Source: an uncultured Acidobacteriota bacterium
GTDB lineage: Bacteria; Acidobacteriota; Vicinamibacteria; Vicinamibacterales; JAKQTR01
Assembly (NCBI GenBank): GCA_963813325.1
Contig: CAWEYM010000002.1
Coordinates: 70,391 to 134,390 of the forward strand
DNA length: 64,000 nt
Direction: 5' to 3'
How positions within the stretch are numbered: position 1 is the first letter of the stretch; every line of letters starts with the position of its first letter. Below, one piece after another: positions 576 through 32,407 of this stretch. The translations under genes were made by a program, and so were the position numbers. Below the pieces are notes generated by a model. The model worked only from the letters and a program-made list of their open reading frames with translations, did no database searches and had not been told where the DNA came from.

Positions 576-1259
576 GTGGCGCAGTTCTTCCGGGTGGCGT
601 GGGTGGTGATGCGCAAGGACCTCACGGTCGAGGTGCGCAGCCGGGAGGTCATCTACACGACCGTGTTCTTCGCCGTGTCGTGCGTGCTCGTGTTCGCGTT
701 CGCCCTCGTGAAGGAGGGGCGCCCGCTCGAGGACGCCGCCGCCGGCATCCTGTGGATCGCGATTTCCTTTGCCGGGACGCTCGGGCTGGGCCGGACCTTC
801 GAGCGCGAACGCCACACGGAGACCCTGCGGGCCCTGATGCTCGCGCCGTCGGAACGTCCCGCGATCTACGTCGGCAAGCTGCTGGGCATCGTCAGCCTCC
901 TGCTCGTGGTGGAGGCCATCCTGGTGCCGCTCGTCGGGCTGCTGTTCTCGGCGCCCGTCTTTGCCGAGCCGCTCTGGCTGGCCGTCTTGCTCGTTGCCGG
1001 CACGATCGGATTCTCGAGCGTCGGGACGCTGTTCGCGGCGATGCTCATCAAGGCGCGGAGCCGGGACGTGCTGCTGCCGGTGCTGCTGTATCCGATTACC
1101 GTCCCGGTGATCATCGCCGGCGTGCGCGGGACGATGGCGCTGCTGCAGGCGACGCCAGACGTCCCGATGGCGCGCTTCTGGGCGGCGCTCCTCGTGTTCT
1201 TCGACGTCGTGTTCGTGACCTTGTCGCTGTGGACGTTCGAGCCGCTCATGACAGAATAG
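576..1259 (+). CDS. ccmB: Heme exporter permease CcmB
   Basis: 227-aa polytopic membrane protein located between ccmA and ccmC. The N-terminus MAQFFRVAWVVMRKDLTVEVRSRE is typical of CcmB. Its stop TAG lies inside the first unit of the heptamer array. Confidence 0.85.
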   Translation: MAQFFRVAWVVMRKDLTVEVRSREVIYTTVFFAVSCVLVFAFALVKEGRPLEDAAAGILWIAISFAGTLGLGRTFERERHTETLRALMLAPSERPAIYVGKLLGIVSLLLVVEAILVPLVGLLFSAPVFAEPLWLAVLLVAGTIGFSSVGTLFAAMLIKARSRDVLLPVLLYPITVPVIIAGVRGTMALLQATPDVPMARFWAALLVFFDVVFVTLSLWTFEPLMTE

Positions 1260-1359: not shown

Positions 1360-2016
1360 ATGAACAAAGCCTTCACTCCGTTGACTCTCGTCGCAATGGT
1401 GCTCTTCGTCACCGCTCCCGTGATGGTGGCCGGGGCGCCGACGGAAGCGACGATGGGGATGATCCAGAAGATCTTCTACTACCACGTGCCGGCCGCGATG
1501 GTGATGTTCCTGGCCACCTTCGTGTGCGGCGTGGCGAGCGGCGTCTTCCTCTTCAAGCGGAGCGCCGCCGCGGATCGGCTGGCGGTGTCGGCGGCCGAAC
1601 TGTCGGTCCTGTTCGGGGCCATCGTGCTCGTGACCGGCCCGCTCTGGGCCCGCAAGGCCTGGGGTGTCTGGTGGCAGTGGGATGCCCGCCTGACCTCGGT
1701 CCTCCTGCTCTGGATGATCTTCATCGCCTACCTGCTCGTGCGCCGGTACGGCGGACCGGGATCGGAAAAACTGGCCGCGGCCATGGCCATCTTCGGCATG
1801 GCGAACGTGCCGTTCGTCTACGTGTCGGTGAACTGGTGGCGGACGATTCACCCGAACACCAACGTCGTCCGGACGCTGGCGCCCGGCATGCGGGGCCCGT
1901 TCTGGTTCTGCGTGGTGTCGTTCCTGCTGCTGTTCGGCCTGCTGTTATGGCTGCGCACGCGGCTCGAAAACCAGCGGGCGCGAGTCGAACAACTGTACCT
2001 GGCGATGGATGAATAG
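1360..2016 (+). CDS. ccmC: Heme exporter / heme lyase component CcmC
   Basis: Contains the tryptophan-rich heme-handling motif WGVWWQWDARLTS and is a polytopic membrane protein. ATG at 1360; an alternative GTG lies at 1342. Confidence 0.9.
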   Translation: MNKAFTPLTLVAMVLFVTAPVMVAGAPTEATMGMIQKIFYYHVPAAMVMFLATFVCGVASGVFLFKRSAAADRLAVSAAELSVLFGAIVLVTGPLWARKAWGVWWQWDARLTSVLLLWMIFIAYLLVRRYGGPGSEKLAAAMAIFGMANVPFVYVSVNWWRTIHPNTNVVRTLAPGMRGPFWFCVVSFLLLFGLLLWLRTRLENQRARVEQLYLAMDE

Positions 2017-3387: not shown

Positions 3388-3888
3388 CTATGCTCCCAGC
3401 CATTCCAGGATGTGCTCGACCAGTTCACCGATCGGCCTGCGCGAAGCGTCGACCCGCAAGTGCGAGAGCTGGTACGCCGCGCGCCGCACGTCATAGAGCA
3501 ACGCCAGCTGGGTCCGGTCGGCCGCGAGCGGGCGGCTGCCGTCGAGCGGGATCCTCGGGACGAGCTCCGCCAGCGGCACGTCGAGCCAGATCGCAGCCCC
3601 GTCGGCCTTGATGACCGCCCGGTTGTCGGGATCCGCGAACGTCCCGCCGCCCGTGGCGATCACCGCGTGGCGCTCCGCCACCAGGTCGAGCAGGACGGCG
3701 CGCTCTACGGCGCGGAAGTATGCTTCGCCATGCCGGGCGAAGATCTCCGAGACCCGCTGGCGCTCCCGGGCCTCGATGGTGTCGTCCACGTCGATCATCT
3801 GCCAGCCCAGCCGGGACGCGAGCGCCCGCCCGACCGACGTCTTGCCCGCTGCCATGAACCCGACGAGGTAGATCTTGTCCGTTCTCAC
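3388..3888 (-). CDS. aroK: Shikimate kinase
   Basis: Has Walker A GFMAAGKTSVG, a shikimate kinase-like core (IDVDD, ATGGG), and overlaps the aroA stop by 4 nt. Confidence 0.9.
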   Translation of the reverse strand: MRTDKIYLVGFMAAGKTSVGRALASRLGWQMIDVDDTIEARERQRVSEIFARHGEAYFRAVERAVLLDLVAERHAVIATGGGTFADPDNRAVIKADGAAIWLDVPLAELVPRIPLDGSRPLAADRTQLALLYDVRRAAYQLSHLRVDASRRPIGELVEHILEWLGA

Positions 3889-5201
3889 GACCGCAGGATC
3901 CCGAGCGTGTCGAAGAACCCCGGGTACGACACCGACACGGCATCGGCCCCGAGAATGGTGGATGAGGCGCGCGCCCCGAGGGCGGCGATCGAGAACGCCA
4001 TCGCCAGGCGGTGGTCCCCGGCGGCGTCGGCCGTGCCGCCCGCCAGCGGCTCACCGCTCTGAACCGTGAAACCGTCGTCGTACTCCTCGGCCGTGGCGCC
4101 GAGGGCGCGGAGCCCCGCCACCAGCGCCGCGATGCGGTCGCTTTCCTTGACCCGCAGTTCGCCGGCCCCCGTGACGGTGAGCGCGCCCCCAAAGGTCGCG
4201 AGCGCGGCGAGGGCGGGAATCTCGTCGATGAGCGCGGGGACGTCCGTCGGGTCGATCGTCGCCGGGCGCAGGGTGCCGTACCGCACGCGCATCGTGCCGG
4301 CGGGCTCCGGCTCGCCCGGATTGAGGATGGCCACGTCGACTTGCGCGCCCATGCGGGTGAGGACGTCGAGAAACGCGATCCGGGTCGGGTTGAGGCCCAC
4401 GTCATGAATCTCGACCTCTGACCCCGGCACCGCGGCAGCGGCCACGGCCCAGAATGCCGCGGAGGACGCGTCGCCCGGCACGCGCACCGTGGCGGGACGC
4501 AGCCGCTGGCCGCCGGCCACCCGGACGCGGGCCTGCGCGTCGATGTCGACCTCGGCGCCGAAGATCCGCAGGGCGAGCTCGGTGTGGTTCCTCGTCGGCA
4601 CCAGTTCGTGCACCGAGGTGATTCCCCGCGCGTGGAGCCCGGCCAGCAGCACCGCACTCTTGACCTGGGCGCTCGGCACGGCTGGATCGAACGCGATCGC
4701 CGACAGCGCGCCACCCGACACGGTCAGCGGCAGGCGGCCATCGTTCGATGTGATCCGCGCGCCCATGCGCTCGAGGGGTTCGATGACGCGGCGCATCGGG
4801 CGCCGTGAGAGGGAGGCGTCCCCGGTGAAGGTCGTGTCGAACCGGTGCCCGGCCAGGATCCCGCACAGCAGGCGGACCGTCGTCCCCGAGTTGCGGGCCT
4901 CAAGTGCGGCGGGCGCCGGGCGCAACGCCCCGACGCCGCGACCCTCGACGATCCAGGCGGTGCCGCCCGACACGTCCTCCCCGGCCGGCCGGACGGGGAC
5001 GCCCAGCGCGGCCAGGCACTCGCGCGTGGCCCGGCAGTCCTCACCTGGCGCCAGGTTGAAGAGGCGGGATTCGCCGTCCGCCAGGGCGGCGAGCATCAGG
5101 ACGCGATGCGAGATCGACTTGTCGCCGGGCACGCGGACGCGGCCATGCAGGCCCTCCCCGGGGCCGATCGGAGCAACCAGCGTGGATGCCACGGCTCGCA
5201 C
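3885..5201 (-). CDS. aroA: 3-phosphoshikimate 1-carboxyvinyltransferase (EPSP synthase)
   Basis: Contains PGDKSISHR, LMLAALADGES and a full-length EPSPS-like sequence. The ORF runs to 5300, but a GTG at 5201 or 5192 gives the canonical N-terminal length. Confidence 0.9.
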   Translation of the reverse strand: MRAVASTLVAPIGPGEGLHGRVRVPGDKSISHRVLMLAALADGESRLFNLAPGEDCRATRECLAALGVPVRPAGEDVSGGTAWIVEGRGVGALRPAPAALEARNSGTTVRLLCGILAGHRFDTTFTGDASLSRRPMRRVIEPLERMGARITSNDGRLPLTVSGGALSAIAFDPAVPSAQVKSAVLLAGLHARGITSVHELVPTRNHTELALRIFGAEVDIDAQARVRVAGGQRLRPATVRVPGDASSAAFWAVAAAAVPGSEVEIHDVGLNPTRIAFLDVLTRMGAQVDVAILNPGEPEPAGTMRVRYGTLRPATIDPTDVPALIDEIPALAALATFGGALTVTGAGELRVKESDRIAALVAGLRALGATAEEYDDGFTVQSGEPLAGGTADAAGDHRLAMAFSIAALGARASSTILGADAVSVSYPGFFDTLGILRS

Positions 5202-19059: not shown

Positions 19060-20226
19060 CTACTGGCAGCCCGGGCGCGGCTGGTAGGTCTTCGGGTAGA
19101 CGTAGTCGGTCCCGGCCTCACCCCACGTCAGCCGGAGGGGCACGCTCGTGTTGTCGTAGTCGAACCCGATATCCACGCCAATCCAGACGCCGTTCTTCTT
19201 GTAGTCCAGGAAGTCGATGCTGATCTCGGGGCCGCCGCGCTTCAGGTTCCACGCCAGGTCCATCCCGCCGCAGATGCCGGCCTCGATCATCCGGTCACGG
19301 ACGTAAGCCATGTTGGCCTTCCGCACGTCGAGAGACACGCCACCCCGGAGGCGATCGGGATAGTGACTCTCGGCCCACCTGACCACGTCCGGCCCGTTCG
19401 TCGGCCACCCGCCCGGCGGCGGCGGGTCCGGCGGCGGCGGGTCCGGGGGCGGCGGCGGTTCGGGCGCGGTCGGTGTCAGAAACGTCTGCGTCGGCGACCA
19501 GGCACCGGTCGTGTTGGGATCGTAGGCCCGCACGCGCCAGAAATATCGCTTGTCGTAAGTCAGTTCCTGCGCCAGCCGGAACTTGGTCTCGGTGGCCTGC
19601 TCCGGGACCGTCACGACGGCCACGATCGCGGTGAACGGCTCGTTCTCGGAGATCTGGAAGGTGTAGGCGATCGCGCCGACCGGGCCCGACCGGGAGGCGT
19701 TGCGGGTCTTGAACTCCGGACGCTCACTGTTCGTGCGGACGCCCCCTACCGGGCTGATGGGCTGCGGCACGCCCAGGTCGACGGGCGTGTAGACCGTAAA
19801 GCTGGCCGCGGCGGAGTAGGGCCCGGTATTGGCGCCATCCAGCGCCCGCGCCCGCCAGTAGTAGGTCCGGTCTGGGGCCAGCGCGTCGGGCAGTCGAAGG
19901 CTGGTCCGGCCGTTGCCGCCGGGTTCGACGCCCTCGCGGTTGAACACCTTCTGCCTGAACTCACCGTCCGTGGCAATCTCAAAAACGTAAGACAGGGCGC
20001 GCTCACCGTTGGTCGATGCGTTCTCGATGAGCAGCGTGACCGGCTGCTCCGTCGTCTTGACGGGGACGCCCTGGGGTTCGAGAGGCTTGGGCGCCGTGAT
20101 GTTCACCCCGGCGATCGGGCCCGCAATCGACGGGCTCGTTGGATTCTTGCTCTTTTCCGCCCCGCAACCGGCCAGCATGGCGACCGCCAGACCGCAGGCG
20201 AGGATGCCAGATGCCGTGTGTTTCAT
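19060..20226 (-). CDS. Lipoprotein with two tandem beta-sandwich-like repeats, a poly-Pro linker and a C-terminal globular domain
   Basis: Has the lipobox LAGC at MKHTASGILACGLAVAMLAGCG. The repeats end ..RTYYWRARALDGANTGPYS..FTVYTP and ..KRYFWRVRAYDPNTTGAWS..FLTPT. The linker is PEPPPPPDPPPPDPPPPGG. Confidence 0.75.
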   Translation of the reverse strand: MKHTASGILACGLAVAMLAGCGAEKSKNPTSPSIAGPIAGVNITAPKPLEPQGVPVKTTEQPVTLLIENASTNGERALSYVFEIATDGEFRQKVFNREGVEPGGNGRTSLRLPDALAPDRTYYWRARALDGANTGPYSAAASFTVYTPVDLGVPQPISPVGGVRTNSERPEFKTRNASRSGPVGAIAYTFQISENEPFTAIVAVVTVPEQATETKFRLAQELTYDKRYFWRVRAYDPNTTGAWSPTQTFLTPTAPEPPPPPDPPPPDPPPPGGWPTNGPDVVRWAESHYPDRLRGGVSLDVRKANMAYVRDRMIEAGICGGMDLAWNLKRGGPEISIDFLDYKKNGVWIGVDIGFDYDNTSVPLRLTWGEAGTDYVYPKTYQPRPGCQ

Positions 20227-29461: not shown

Positions 29462-30256
29462 ATGGCCTACCGCAGCTCCCTCGAAGCCCGGCTTGCCCGG
29501 AAAGTGACCAGGGCCGCCGTGGCGTACAACCTGATTGCCGACGGCGACCGCATCATGGTCGGCCTCTCGGGCGGCAAAGACTCCTGGGCCTTGATGCAGA
29601 TCCTCGATGTCCTGCGCCAGCGCGCCCCGATCCGCTTCTCGCTGGTTGCGGTGACCGTGGACTCCGGCTACGAGGAATTCCGCAGCGACCTGGTGGCTGC
29701 GGCCTGCGCCGATCGCGGCTGGGAGCACCACCTGGAGCGCACGTCCATCGGCGAGGTGATCGACGACCTGCTCGAGCCGGCCGACACGCCTTGTTCACTG
29801 TGCGCACGACTGCGGCGAGGGGTGCTCTACCGGCTGGCGACGAGCCTCGGCGCCACGAAGATCGCCCTCGGCCATCATGCCGACGATTTCGTGGAGACGC
29901 TGCTCCTCAACCTGTTCTTCGCGGGCTCGATCAAGGCGATGCCGGCGCGCCTGGTGTCCGACGACGGCCGCCACGTCGTCGTCCGCCCGCTGGTCCTGGT
30001 CACGGAACACGACGCCCGGGCCTATGCGAAGGAGAGCGGCCTCCCCATCATCGGGTGCTGCTGCCCGGCCTGCGGCGACTTCAGCCTGCAGCGGCAGCGG
30101 ATCAAGCGACTGGTCGCAGACCTGGAGCACGAGCACCCGGGTGTGAGGAAGTCCCTCCTGCGCGCGCTCGCCAACGTCGCGCCGCGCCATCTCCTCGATA
30201 CGCGGCTGAACCCGGTCGCCGACACGGTGCGCGACCTGGCCCGGTCCGCATCATGA
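29462..30256 (+). CDS. ttcA: tRNA 2-thiocytidine biosynthesis protein TtcA
   Basis: Has the PP-loop SGGKDS and the Cys motifs CSLCARLRRG and GCCCPACG. Confidence 0.85.
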   Translation: MAYRSSLEARLARKVTRAAVAYNLIADGDRIMVGLSGGKDSWALMQILDVLRQRAPIRFSLVAVTVDSGYEEFRSDLVAAACADRGWEHHLERTSIGEVIDDLLEPADTPCSLCARLRRGVLYRLATSLGATKIALGHHADDFVETLLLNLFFAGSIKAMPARLVSDDGRHVVVRPLVLVTEHDARAYAKESGLPIIGCCCPACGDFSLQRQRIKRLVADLEHEHPGVRKSLLRALANVAPRHLLDTRLNPVADTVRDLARSAS

Positions 30257-30702
30257 GAGCGGTCGTCCAGCGGGTCACCTCGGCCCGCGTCGTGGTCGAC
30301 GGCGTCACGGTGGGCGACATCGGCCACGGACTGCTGGCGCTCGTCGGTGTCGCCGGCGACGATGGGCCGGCCGACGTGCGGTACATCGCGACGAAACTGA
30401 ACGACCTGCGCGTGTTTCCCGATGAGCAGGGCAAGATGAACCGGTCGCTGGGCGAGGCCGGCGGATCGATCCTCGCGGTCTCGCAGATCACGCTCTATGG
30501 CGATTGCCGTCACGGCCGGCGGCCGTCGTTCACGCGGGCCGCGGGGCCGGAAGCGGGGCGCCTGCTCTTCGACGCCGTCGTCCAGAGTCTGCGTGAGGCC
30601 GGAGTGGTCGTGGCGACGGGAACCTACCAGGCGCACATGGCCGTGGAACTGGTGAACGACGGGCCGGTGACAATCCTGCTGGACAGCCGCAAGGAGTTCT
30701 GA
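30253..30702 (+). CDS. dtd: D-aminoacyl-tRNA deacylase
   Basis: Begins MRAVVQRVTSARVVVDG and contains SQITLYGD and NDGPVT motifs. The start forms an ATGA overlap with ttcA. Confidence 0.9.
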   Translation: MRAVVQRVTSARVVVDGVTVGDIGHGLLALVGVAGDDGPADVRYIATKLNDLRVFPDEQGKMNRSLGEAGGSILAVSQITLYGDCRHGRRPSFTRAAGPEAGRLLFDAVVQSLREAGVVVATGTYQAHMAVELVNDGPVTILLDSRKEF

Positions 30703-30723
30703 CGGGCGCTATGACCTCCCTTT

Positions 30724-30793
30724 AACCTACAACCTATAACCTACAACCTATAACCTATAACCTATAACCTACAACCTACTCCCTATTCCCTAT
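30724..30793 (-). repeat. Ten in-phase heptamer units (plus strand AACCTAY x8 then TCCCTAT x2), the reverse complement of ATAGGTT/GTAGGTT/ATAGGGA
   Basis: Read directly from the sequence. The units are identical to those at 1256-1297 but in opposite orientation. The last 18 nt (30776-30793) encode the glpD C-terminus ..IGNRE plus its stop. Confidence 0.95.
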
Positions 30794-32407
30794 GACGGGC
30801 GCGTAGAACCGTGCGAGGCCCGACACCTCCTCGGCCTGGCGTGCCGCGTCCCAGCCCAGGTCCCGGGCCAGCATGGCGAGGCTCGCCCGCACGGCCGCCT
30901 GGCCCGGGTGCCCGGCGACGCCAAGACCCGTGCGCCGGACCACGACGTCGGTCAACGTCAGTGCCATTTCGGCGCGAACCGCGTGGACGAGTTCAGCCAG
31001 GATCGCGGGAGACGCCGGTGTGATCGGCGCAGCCAACTCAGGACGCTCGCGGCACAGCGCCGCGACCTGGCGCCACCCTGTACCGTGCGTCTCCACGAGG
31101 TGGACGGCCGCCGCGTCGGTGAGAATCTCCCGCGTCGACCCGACAGCCTCGCGCCGCTCGCTCTCCAGCGACGGCATCTCCCCGCCCGGCAGCGGCGTCG
31201 TGCCGGTCCGGCAGGCCGGGGACCTGCCCAGTTTGCCGCAGGCCGCGTCGATCGCCTGTTGAGCCACGCCGCGCGCGGTCGTGTATTTCACGCCCACCAT
31301 CGAGATGGCGCCGTCGACCCCGTCCCGGGCATGATCGACGACGCGGTGATGCCCGCGCAGCCCGAGGGTGCCGTTGCGGTTCCGCTCGGCCGGCACGACG
31401 CCCCGGTGCACCAGCGTCACATCGCGATCCGTGAGGGCCAGGTCCGGGAACGCGCTGTTCACCTCACTCACGAACGCGGACAACTCGGCGGGCGCCACGT
31501 CGGACTCGTGCGGTTCGACGAGACGATCCGAGTGCGAGGTGCCCACGAGCGCGCGGCCCTGCCACGGCATGATCAGCAGTAATCGGCCGTCGGACGTGGG
31601 AGCACCGATGGCGGTCGACCCGGCGGGCCGGCCGGTCACCAGGTTCATCGCCTTCAGCAGCGGGAAGTCGTGCGGCGCGCCCATCGCCTCCATGAAGCGG
31701 CCGGTGAACGCCCCGGCGGCGTTGACCACGACACGGGCCTCGACCTCGAGGGTCTGTCCCGTGACGCGGTCGCGCACCGCGAACCCGGTGACACGTCCGT
31801 TCGACACCCGCGGCGCGAGCGCCTCGACGTAGTTCGCCAGCACGGCGCCGTGGGCGTCCGCGGCCAGAGCGAAGGCCAGCGTGAGCCGATCCGTGTGCGC
31901 CATGTGGTAGTCGTACCACCGGGCCCCGCCCGTGACGTGGGCGGGGCGCTCGCCGCCGAAGACCGCCGCGCACGCCTCGCGCGAGATGAGCCGCCCTGCC
32001 GGCAGTCGCAGGGACGGCCACAGGCCCGCGTTGCGATCGAAGCCGACGCAGGCATCGAGCCACAGGCCGGCCTGCATCGCGAGGCGGCCTCGCATCAGCG
32101 TGCGCGTCGTGTCGATGACGAAGGGCAGCGGGGCGACCAGGTGCGGAGCGATGCGCGCGAGCGCACGCCGCTCGCCGACCGAGAAGCGGGCCTTGACGAG
32201 GTCGCCGCGCTGAAGCGATCGCAGGCCGCCGTGCACCGTCTTGGCGTGGTTGAACGAACTGCCGCTGCCGAAGTCGCCGCGCTCCACCAGCGCGACAGAG
32301 AGCCCCCGTTGCGCGGCGTCGTACGCCGCGGCCAGGCCGTGGATGCCGCCGCCAATGACGAGGACGTCGTGTCGGCGCGCGGTGAGGCGAGCGAGATCGC
32401 GGATCAT
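30776..32407 (-). CDS. glpD: FAD-dependent glycerol-3-phosphate dehydrogenase/oxidase
   Basis: Has the N-terminal dinucleotide fold DVLVIGGGIHGLAAAYDAAQRG, the motif GSGSSFNHAKTVHGGLRSL and a C-terminal GlpD-type domain. Confidence 0.85.
   Translation of the reverse strand: MIRDLARLTARRHDVLVIGGGIHGLAAAYDAAQRGLSVALVERGDFGSGSSFNHAKTVHGGLRSLQRGDLVKARFSVGERRALARIAPHLVAPLPFVIDTTRTLMRGRLAMQAGLWLDACVGFDRNAGLWPSLRLPAGRLISREACAAVFGGERPAHVTGGARWYDYHMAHTDRLTLAFALAADAHGAVLANYVEALAPRVSNGRVTGFAVRDRVTGQTLEVEARVVVNAAGAFTGRFMEAMGAPHDFPLLKAMNLVTGRPAGSTAIGAPTSDGRLLLIMPWQGRALVGTSHSDRLVEPHESDVAPAELSAFVSEVNSAFPDLALTDRDVTLVHRGVVPAERNRNGTLGLRGHHRVVDHARDGVDGAISMVGVKYTTARGVAQQAIDAACGKLGRSPACRTGTTPLPGGEMPSLESERREAVGSTREILTDAAAVHLVETHGTGWRQVAALCRERPELAAPITPASPAILAELVHAVRAEMALTLTDVVVRRTGLGVAGHPGQAAVRASLAMLARDLGWDAARQAEEVSGLARFYAPVIGNRE

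Follow-up and report, generated by a model that had tools for sequence, protein, structure and literature searches.

A tandem heptamer array at the glpD stop codon of an uncultured acidobacterium belongs to a dispersed family of bacterial heptanucleotide repeats

In a 64-kb stretch of contig CAWEYM010000002.1 (assembly GCA_963813325.1) from an uncultured member of the Vicinamibacterales (Acidobacteriota), hereafter called the window, two genes converge on a tandem array of 7-nt units. On the plus strand lies dtd, which encodes a D-aminoacyl-tRNA deacylase of 149 aa (30253-30702; Pfam Tyr_Deacylase, 1.9e-53), and on the minus strand a glpD-like gene for a flavin adenine dinucleotide-dependent glycerol-3-phosphate dehydrogenase of 543 aa (30776-32407; Pfam DAO and DAO_C), whose TAG stop codon is found at 30776-30778. 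The array itself extends over 30717-30793, with its G-rich strand on the minus strand. It occupies the whole spacer between both genes down to the stop codon of dtd, as had been described in the original prediction, an earlier note made from the letters of this DNA without database searches.

Read on the plus strand, positions 30724-30793 contain the ten in-phase units that were originally claimed, namely AACCTAC, AACCTAT, AACCTAC, three times AACCTAT, twice AACCTAC and twice TCCCTAT. A further, degenerate unit in the same phase, TCCCTTT at 30717-30723, brings the total to 11. On the minus strand, the order is ATAGGGA (two units), GTAGGTT (two), ATAGGTT (three), GTAGGTT, ATAGGTT, GTAGGTT and finally AAAGGGA. 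The eight RTAGGTT units in the middle (30724-30779) have GG only and lack any tract of three guanines, and the first of them in the sense of glpD (30773-30779) carries the stop codon of this gene. They are preceded by the two ATAGGGA units and one additional base (30779-30793), which encode glpD residues 539-543. Beyond the degenerate unit lies a junction segment, GGTCATA at 30710-30716, which by my reading of the sequence is out of register with the units. Tandem Repeats Finder reports 30724-30779 as a repeat with period 7, 8.0 copies and 91% matches, in addition to a TCCCTAT run at 30775-30793. With 11 near-perfect units arranged head-to-tail (91-93% matches), where two suffice by definition, the array is a heptanucleotide simple sequence repeat (SSR).

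Its composition sets it apart, with a G+C content of about 40-45% vs. 70% for the window. A two-unit probe, ATAGGTTATAGG, allowing up to two mismatches, is found 14 times in the window, every time inside this array or inside a second, smaller one at 1256-1297, which makes two loci of this kind where only 0.15 probe matches are expected by chance (14 matches were reached in none of 100 shuffled sequences). Outside the two arrays, ATAGG occurs only about six times per strand. Stop codons are present in all three frames on both strands of the array, as TAG recurs every 7 nt on the minus strand and TAA or TGA occurs in all three frames on the plus strand; any frame that enters from either side is therefore closed within three units. 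There is no sign of directional growth or decay of the array, the residual similarity of the flanking units being equal on both sides. Several other types of repeat could be discarded: a CRISPR array, as the 7-nt units have no spacers; a telomere-type repeat, in view of the internal location and of a unit that is neither TTAGGG nor TTTAGGG; and a coding repeat, since a period of 7 cannot be divided by 3 and all frames contain stops.

At the end of glpD, the minus strand reads TTC TAC GCG CCC GTC for FYAPV, followed by ATA GGG AAT AGG GAG for IGNRE, TAG GTT, and the unit GTAGGTT. The protein thus ends in V-I-G-N-R-E-stop, with IGNRE (residues 539-543) provided by the two ATAGGGA units and TAG by the first RTAGGTT unit, which bears out the claim that the array encodes these five residues and the stop. 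IGNRE lies outside the DAO_C domain (residues 399-524), and conservation among glpD homologues ends at FYAPV, after which a tail of 0 to about 25 residues follows; as these tails differ in length and lie outside the domain, overwriting by the array seems tolerable. The names given to homologues of the flanking genes, Vicinamibacterales or Acidobacteriota, place the window in this group; matches of 100% are confined to one contig of 2.4 Mb, and the next glpD homologue is 70% identical. The four closest glpD homologues all have five residues past FYAPV, EPTEP, DPTEA, EPNSA and EPTRS, respectively (three proteins of 543 aa and one of 542 aa). Because these tails all differ, the ortholog alignment that the original prediction had called for indicates that IGNRE is lineage-specific and encoded by the array. 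As judged from these comparisons, the array has replaced only five non-conserved glpD residues, with protein length and stop position unchanged.

It had been proposed further that the array captured the glpD reading frame and donated its stop codon, and here the comparison with relatives leads to a different conclusion. Two relatives, L123 and L249, have glpD and dtd in the same convergent arrangement, without an array and with spacers of only 33 nt (L123) and 9 nt (L249). In the relatives, conservation of the dtd C-terminus extends to its stop codon. In the window, GCGCCCGTC is followed by 15 nt, TAGGTT and the array; in L123, the sequence is GCGCCCGTC gagccgacgcgctcg TAGGTT cacgcc, so that its TAG is found at the same offset of +15 and is likewise followed by GTT. 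The glpD stop codon of the window is thus in the position seen in L123 and in the homologues of 543 residues, and the stop context of L123 amounts to a single GTAGGTT unit. This TAGGTT suggests that such a stop context either seeded the array or remains from one. I found no period-7 runs in 58 kb of DNA from the relatives, and at 61-87% protein identity none of them has an array at either of the two loci. As stops are kept at the same codons in relatives lacking the arrays, the arrays sit on native stop codons and are not the donors of these. From this sampling, both arrays would have been gained in this Vicinamibacterales-like lineage, or else lost in all sampled relatives. As to gene order, the gene found past the 3' end of glpD varies: L123 and L249 have dtd there, like the window, L121 and L122 have hisD, and L247/L248 a GGDEF gene, which makes this 3' end a recurrent synteny breakpoint; upstream of glpD, a methyltransferase gene and a diaminopimelate epimerase gene are conserved among the relatives.

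The sister array at 1256-1297 is on the plus strand and consists of the units ATAGGTT, ATAGGGA, ATAGGTT, ATAGGGG, ATAGGGG and ATAGGGA. It follows ccmB (576-1259, plus strand, 227 aa) and precedes ccmC (1360-2016, plus strand; Cytochrom_C_asm), which begins 100 nt past the ccmB stop. The claim that the units at glpD are the exact reverse complements of those in the sister array is correct for AACCTAT and TCCCTAT and fails for AACCTAC, since GTAGGTT occurs only in the array at 30717-30793, just as ATAGGGG occurs only in that at 1256-1297. The end of ccmB reads ATG ACA GAA TAG GTT followed by ATAGGGA, and its native stop is the first TAG of the array (1257-1259). Here, too, donation of a stop codon had been predicted. 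However, the TFEPLMTE tail of ccmB, unaltered by the array, is identical in 100 out of 120 homologues, and three relatives without the array have TAG at the same ccmB codon, with spacers between ccmB and ccmC of 2, 36 and 107 nt. The two arrays are 29 kb apart and in opposite orientation, and in both the G-rich strand has the sense of the gene located 5' of it. As array and upstream gene run in the same direction at each locus, polarity follows the gene, and not the chromosome or replication.

To see how widely such arrays occur, I scanned a collection of genomes with one genome per species for the general pattern RTAGGKD (at least four units), metagenomes for the more specific RTAGGTT, and viral contigs (IMG/VR) for RTAGGKD. 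Arrays were found in at least 120 stretches of the genome collection, at least 120 metagenome stretches and at least 120 viral contigs (L250-L369), counts that are lower bounds and say nothing on frequency. The genome matches listed are mostly from cyanobacteria, and also from Acidobacteriota, Gemmatimonadota, Planctomycetota, Bacteroidota, Chloroflexota, Nitrospirota and more; some giant-virus metagenome-assembled genomes (MAGs) are among the viral matches listed. In 95 of 194 arrays from the genome and metagenome matches listed, an open reading frame (ORF) of at least 100 aa on the G-rich strand stops within -100 to +24 nt of the 5' end of the array, and these stop distances peak at -4 and +3, values at which the gene stops on the TAG of the first unit itself. 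On the other side, a convergent ORF ends within 100 nt in only 46 of the 194 arrays, with flat distances. The same polarity is seen in the viral contigs, with 29 vs. 10 cases for the 65 arrays among the matches listed. The upstream stop codon is TAG in 43 out of 74 cases, compared to a background of 25% (p = 5e-9), and in 12 out of 20 cases in the viral contigs (p = 7e-4). The proposal that both arrays of the window belong to one dispersed family located at the 3' ends of genes is supported, and the polarity at these ends is fixed.

One metagenome contig with a G+C content of 0.70 (L162) has a GGTT-type array at 3594-3624, 11 nt past a TAG stop, and some 700 nt away, at 4333-4388, a (CCCCTAT)8 array; a thymidylate-kinase-like ORF is flanked by the two. 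As this contig has the same two unit families as the window, it probably stems from a related organism.

Dispersed heptamers have been described before. Rehm et al. (2015; PMC4692102) report repeats of GGGAATC in Xanthomonas and of GGGGA(C/T)T in Nostoc, spread over many loci of a genome and with 2-26 units per locus. These are mainly non-coding, have the G-rich strand on the coding strand, lie 0-50 bp from a stop codon or overlap it, and have no link with insertion sequences, transposons or other mobile elements. Both arrays of the window show this same placement, and like those repeats they consist of tandem 7-nt units with the G-rich strand coding; in rotation, ATAGGGA and ATAGGGG are about one base apart from GGGAATC and GGGGAYT. 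The differences are that the dominant unit here is RTAGGTT, with GG only and no predicted G-quadruplex (G4), that the units of the window carry a stop codon, that the host is an acidobacterium with 70% G+C, and that a preference for four units is absent (11 and 6 units). According to the same paper, heptamers are over-represented among the long SSRs of large, high-G+C genomes (Mrazek et al. 2007, as cited there), and the short tandemly repeated repetitive (STRR) heptamers of cyanobacteria go back to Mazel et al. 1990 (as cited, ref. 39). The present arrays resemble the STRR sequences in being dispersed tandem heptanucleotides, and the RTAGGKD genome matches listed are mostly cyanobacterial. 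The STRR families (STRR1-3) are defined by other units, CCCCAGT, TTGGTCA and CAACAGT, and by heterocystous cyanobacteria. With RTAGGTT and ATAGGGR units, in a host that is no heterocystous cyanobacterium, the arrays of the window do not belong to the STRR families so defined.

The TAACTGA heptamers that MacGregor (2015; PMC4679880) described in Beggiatoaceae, Cyanobacteria and Bacteroidetes are likewise intergenic tandem repeats with stop codons (2 to 43 copies), spread patchily across phyla with no evident transfer mechanism. However, they are mostly found a few nucleotides upstream of start codons, for which a role in translation initiation was proposed, whereas the arrays of the window lie on or after stops. 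The array at glpD is therefore an SSR of a known class and part of a dispersed RTAGGKD family (RTAGGTT, ATAGGGA, ATAGGGG). It adds an example from an acidobacterium and differs in its RTAGGTT/ATAGGGR units, dispersed heptamers at stop codons being already known from Xanthomonas and Nostoc (PMC4692102).

A feature that at first sight favours insertion of an element is a perfect 10-nt direct repeat, TGACGGGCGC, exactly at the borders of the array. The left copy (30700-30709, plus strand) contains the TGA stop of dtd, and the right copy (30793-30802, plus strand) encodes the conserved A-P-V of glpD on the minus strand. No other copy is present in the window, and the probability that a second one would lie only some tens of bases away is about 3e-4 (based on a shuffle-derived expectation of 0.89 copies per window), so that the duplication is real. 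An 83-nt heptamer segment could thus have been inserted between glpD and dtd at a staggered cut that duplicated the TGACGGGCGC target, either in the manner of a miniature inverted-repeat transposable element (MITE) or by a target-primed route, be it of retro-type or by telomerase-like repeat addition. Direct repeats of 8-11 nt that abut some of the other arrays (L090, L094, L103, L113, L001), and the presence of the same units in many phyla and viral contigs, would fit such an origin, and like MITEs the array is small, non-coding and dispersed. However, the empty site implied, GCGCCCGTCA-GAAC, is hardly viable: once the insert and one copy of the repeat are taken out, the sequence becomes TACGCGCCCGTCAGAACTCC, in which glpD stays open for more than 60 codons, running antisense through dtd, and the stop with its following GTT is found at the ancestral offset. 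Also unlike in MITEs, the interior is purely tandem, and terminal inverted repeats are absent (no inverted pairs at all in 30600-30900). Neither is the bracketing a general phenomenon. The sister array has no such repeat, and a survey of 319 arrays with period 7 gave 27 cases of flanking repeats of 8 nt or more, mostly derived from the array itself, which is not clearly above the 8 and 12 cases in controls with displaced flanks. A cruder first comparison had hinted at an enrichment of target-site duplications, which was unconvincing after these controls and after discounting the array-derived matches. The original suggestion of an element that inserts at gene ends thus finds no backing: terminal inverted repeats and coding capacity are absent, and the 10-nt repeat misfits a simple target-site duplication; I regard insertion as quite unlikely.

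An alternative source of the duplication emerges from the minus strand, where 30700-30716 gives GTCATAGCGCCCGTCA, a circular permutation of the glpD-proximal GCGCCCGTCATAG. This resembles a junction formed by tandem duplication of 12 nt, the type of patch that template switching leaves behind, and template switching is favoured here over insertion as the cause of the bracketing repeat. In two other stretches, L021 (1171-1211 and 4019-4088) and L126 (1899-2105), an array together with 21-25 nt of its flank is itself tandemly repeated; such higher-order repeats result in long apparent bracketing repeats.

Location between convergent genes, at the 3' end of both, is shared with repetitive extragenic palindromic (REP) sequences, bacterial interspersed mosaic elements (BIME) and intrinsic terminators. 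In contrast to these, the array has no palindrome, hairpin or U-tract. No inverted repeat is present in 30600-30900, no promoter- or terminator-like site between dtd and glpD, and no match to the Rfam 15 covariance models at E <= 1 on either strand of 30200-31300, while the G-rich strand folds no better than its shuffles (z = 0.03 to 0.26); the earlier statement that the array lacks a hairpin was therefore right. A displaced terminator hairpin in the 33-nt spacer of L123 was considered and dropped, as it does not differ from shuffles (z around 0) and the spacer of L249 measures only 9 nt. Hairpins might form elsewhere in the family: L072 (around 1807-1865) has (ATAGGGA)n followed by the reverse-complement units TCCCTATTCCCTAT, and L114 (around 1076-1125) has (ATAGGGT)n followed by TACCCTCTACCCTC. 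Inverted pairs capable of forming hairpins are described for the GGGAATC repeats too (PMC4692102).

The absence of an intrinsic terminator between the genes leaves room for another type of transcript 3' end. The C-rich tract downstream of dtd could serve as a loading site for Rho, similar to a Rho utilization (rut) site, while the G-rich glpD transcript would be resistant to Rho and prone to R-loops; transcripts from both strands together would block read-through into the opposite gene, such that the array acts as an insulator. By composition alone the tract resembles a rut site, i.e. some 70-80 nt of C-rich, G-poor, unstructured and untranslated RNA: right after the dtd stop, the 84 nt of the plus strand at 30710-30793 contain 31 C and a single G, and every one of 200 shuffles folds better than this RNA (z = +2.5). 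Owing to the stops in every frame of either strand, RNA past each stop would be free of ribosomes. For Xanthomonas, G4-capable heptamer repeats are reported to coincide with starts or ends of transcripts more often than control repeats do (PMC4692102).

In contrast to rut sites, however, the tract is periodic, and the orientation within the family follows the gene on the G-rich strand, with flat distances on the side that would read the C-rich strand. The sister array is placed the opposite way relative to its operon, its C-rich strand being antisense. Among the matches listed, the heptamer arrays are commonest in cyanobacteria, which are not known to have Rho. The relatives do with spacers of 9 to 33 nt that fold no better than shuffles. 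A terminator heuristic gave no difference downstream of arrays (5 out of 87) compared to control gene ends (142 out of 1778), and is uninformative. On balance, a role in ending transcripts or insulating the two genes is unlikely.

The original prediction had also called for a prediction of structure on the G-rich strand, and the outcome differs between the arrays. At 1256-1297 there are four tracts of three or more guanines and ViennaRNA, with G4 energies switched on, predicts a G4; at 30717-30793 none is placed. A regulatory repeat whose G-rich strand folds as a G4, either in DNA or at the 3' end of the glpD mRNA, has a precedent in what was proposed for the GGGAATC/GGGGAYT repeats and would be in line with the sister array, with ATAGGGA and ATAGGGG being a single base away in rotation from GGGAATC and GGGGAYT, and with the G4 that those related repeats form in vitro (PMC4692102). 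However, 8 out of the 11 units at glpD are RTAGGTT with GG only, and its GGG tracts, three in all, are distributed 2 + 1 over 60 nt, short of the four consecutive tracts with short loops that define the G4-forming heptamers; the folding energies are like those of shuffles (z = 0.26 and 0.03). Moreover, units with GG only and with GGG share arrays, placement and polarity, so that tracts of three guanines are not the common denominator, and a G4 as the explanation for the glpD array is very improbable.

Another explanation would be that the phased UAGG/TAGG cores are a platform bound by a widespread single-strand nucleic-acid-binding protein, or by one associated with translation or termination, past the stop codon. 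The TAGG core is invariant, with variation at position 1 and positions 5-7, the same units are spread across phyla, and in the three collections placement is tight, with the arrays between -4 and +13 nt of a stop in the sense orientation. RNA-binding proteins have been proposed for the TAACTGA repeats by MacGregor (PMC4679880). However, the invariance of TAGG is imposed by the search patterns, a candidate protein is not identified, and as relatives lack arrays at both loci, such a function would be dispensable here. I consider this explanation improbable. In more general terms, the RTAGGKD arrays might be more than passive products of slippage and owe their formation or upkeep to a conserved process that is polar and coupled to the termination of translation or transcription. 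This may be a synthesis primed on TAG stops, by copy choice or by templated addition of repeats, or it may act through a post-stop signal for a ubiquitous factor. If true, this would explain why identical units occur at stop codons, with the G-rich strand in sense, in Acidobacteriota, Cyanobacteria, Bacteroidota, Planctomycetota, Gemmatimonadota and viral contigs; for now it is a speculative idea with little probability.

The explanation I favour, with a probability of roughly 55%, is that of a slippage-prone repeat anchored on the native TAG of glpD, with its units templated from another array and without the need for a dedicated function. The array would have nucleated on a pre-existing TAG(GTT) at the glpD stop, where template switching or gene conversion, with the rare TAGG microhomology as primer, could have supplied units copied from another array. 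Replication slippage may then have caused further growth, and the 12-nt templated patch beside the dtd stop would be the scar of a template switch. At this locus, the product would be a tolerated, structure-free spacer between convergent genes with stops in all frames, which may persist because entering frames are closed within three units, making it harmless at the end of a gene.

Several observations weigh against this explanation. Local slippage alone fails to explain units that are common to two arrays and to many phyla; some putative templating or selection of the motif would be required. The 10-nt bracketing repeat is not cleanly explained, and the GTAGGTT in L123 could be due to chance (about 1%, given a TAG stop) or could be the remnant of a lost array. 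The enrichment of TAG is partly by construction, as the units contain TAG, and where the stop lies over 3 nt upstream of the array, TAG accounts for only 41% vs. 25% (p = 0.02). Finally, the tight polar placement at stop codons in three collections, together with the conservation of 83% of the repeat loci, with varying lengths, between two Xanthomonas species (PMC4692102), suggests a function for which a neutral model makes no provision.

Other repeats were observed in the same scans. A second heptamer family, GCCGTTC, is present in the window, with GCCGTTT, GCCGTTC and GCCGCTG at 1305-1325, directly 3' of the sister array in the spacer between ccmB and ccmC, and 2.4 copies of GCCGTTC at 2589-2622 within a 25-nt repeat, past a small ORF ending in TAG at 2547-2549; in total, seven matches with up to two mismatches were found in the window vs. 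2.4 expected. A Gemmatimonadales MAG (L115, 7076-7226) has (GGTGAAC)n/(CCGTTCA)n arrays. Tandem Repeats Finder also detected a CGG-rich repeat with a 15-nt period, CCGGCGGCGGCGGGT, at 19413-19466 of the window (2.9 copies, 96% matches).

The present observations extend the reach of a poorly understood group of dispersed bacterial heptamers to a Vicinamibacterales-like acidobacterium. For annotation, they imply that C-terminal residues and stop codons beside such arrays can be encoded by the repeat, as is the case for IGNRE, and may differ between strains in steps of 7 nt. The glpD locus is ordinary for its class, and this single locus does not answer what heptamer repeats do. However, as RTAGGTT units, with GG only, occur in the same arrays as GGG units and agree with them in placement and polarity, the potential to form a G4 is not the unifying property that was proposed for the class, and the polar anchoring at stop codons, reproduced in three independent collections, offers a handle on the 35-year-old question of the role of these repeats. 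Taken together, stop-codon anchoring and GG-only units are useful constraints on what that function could be.

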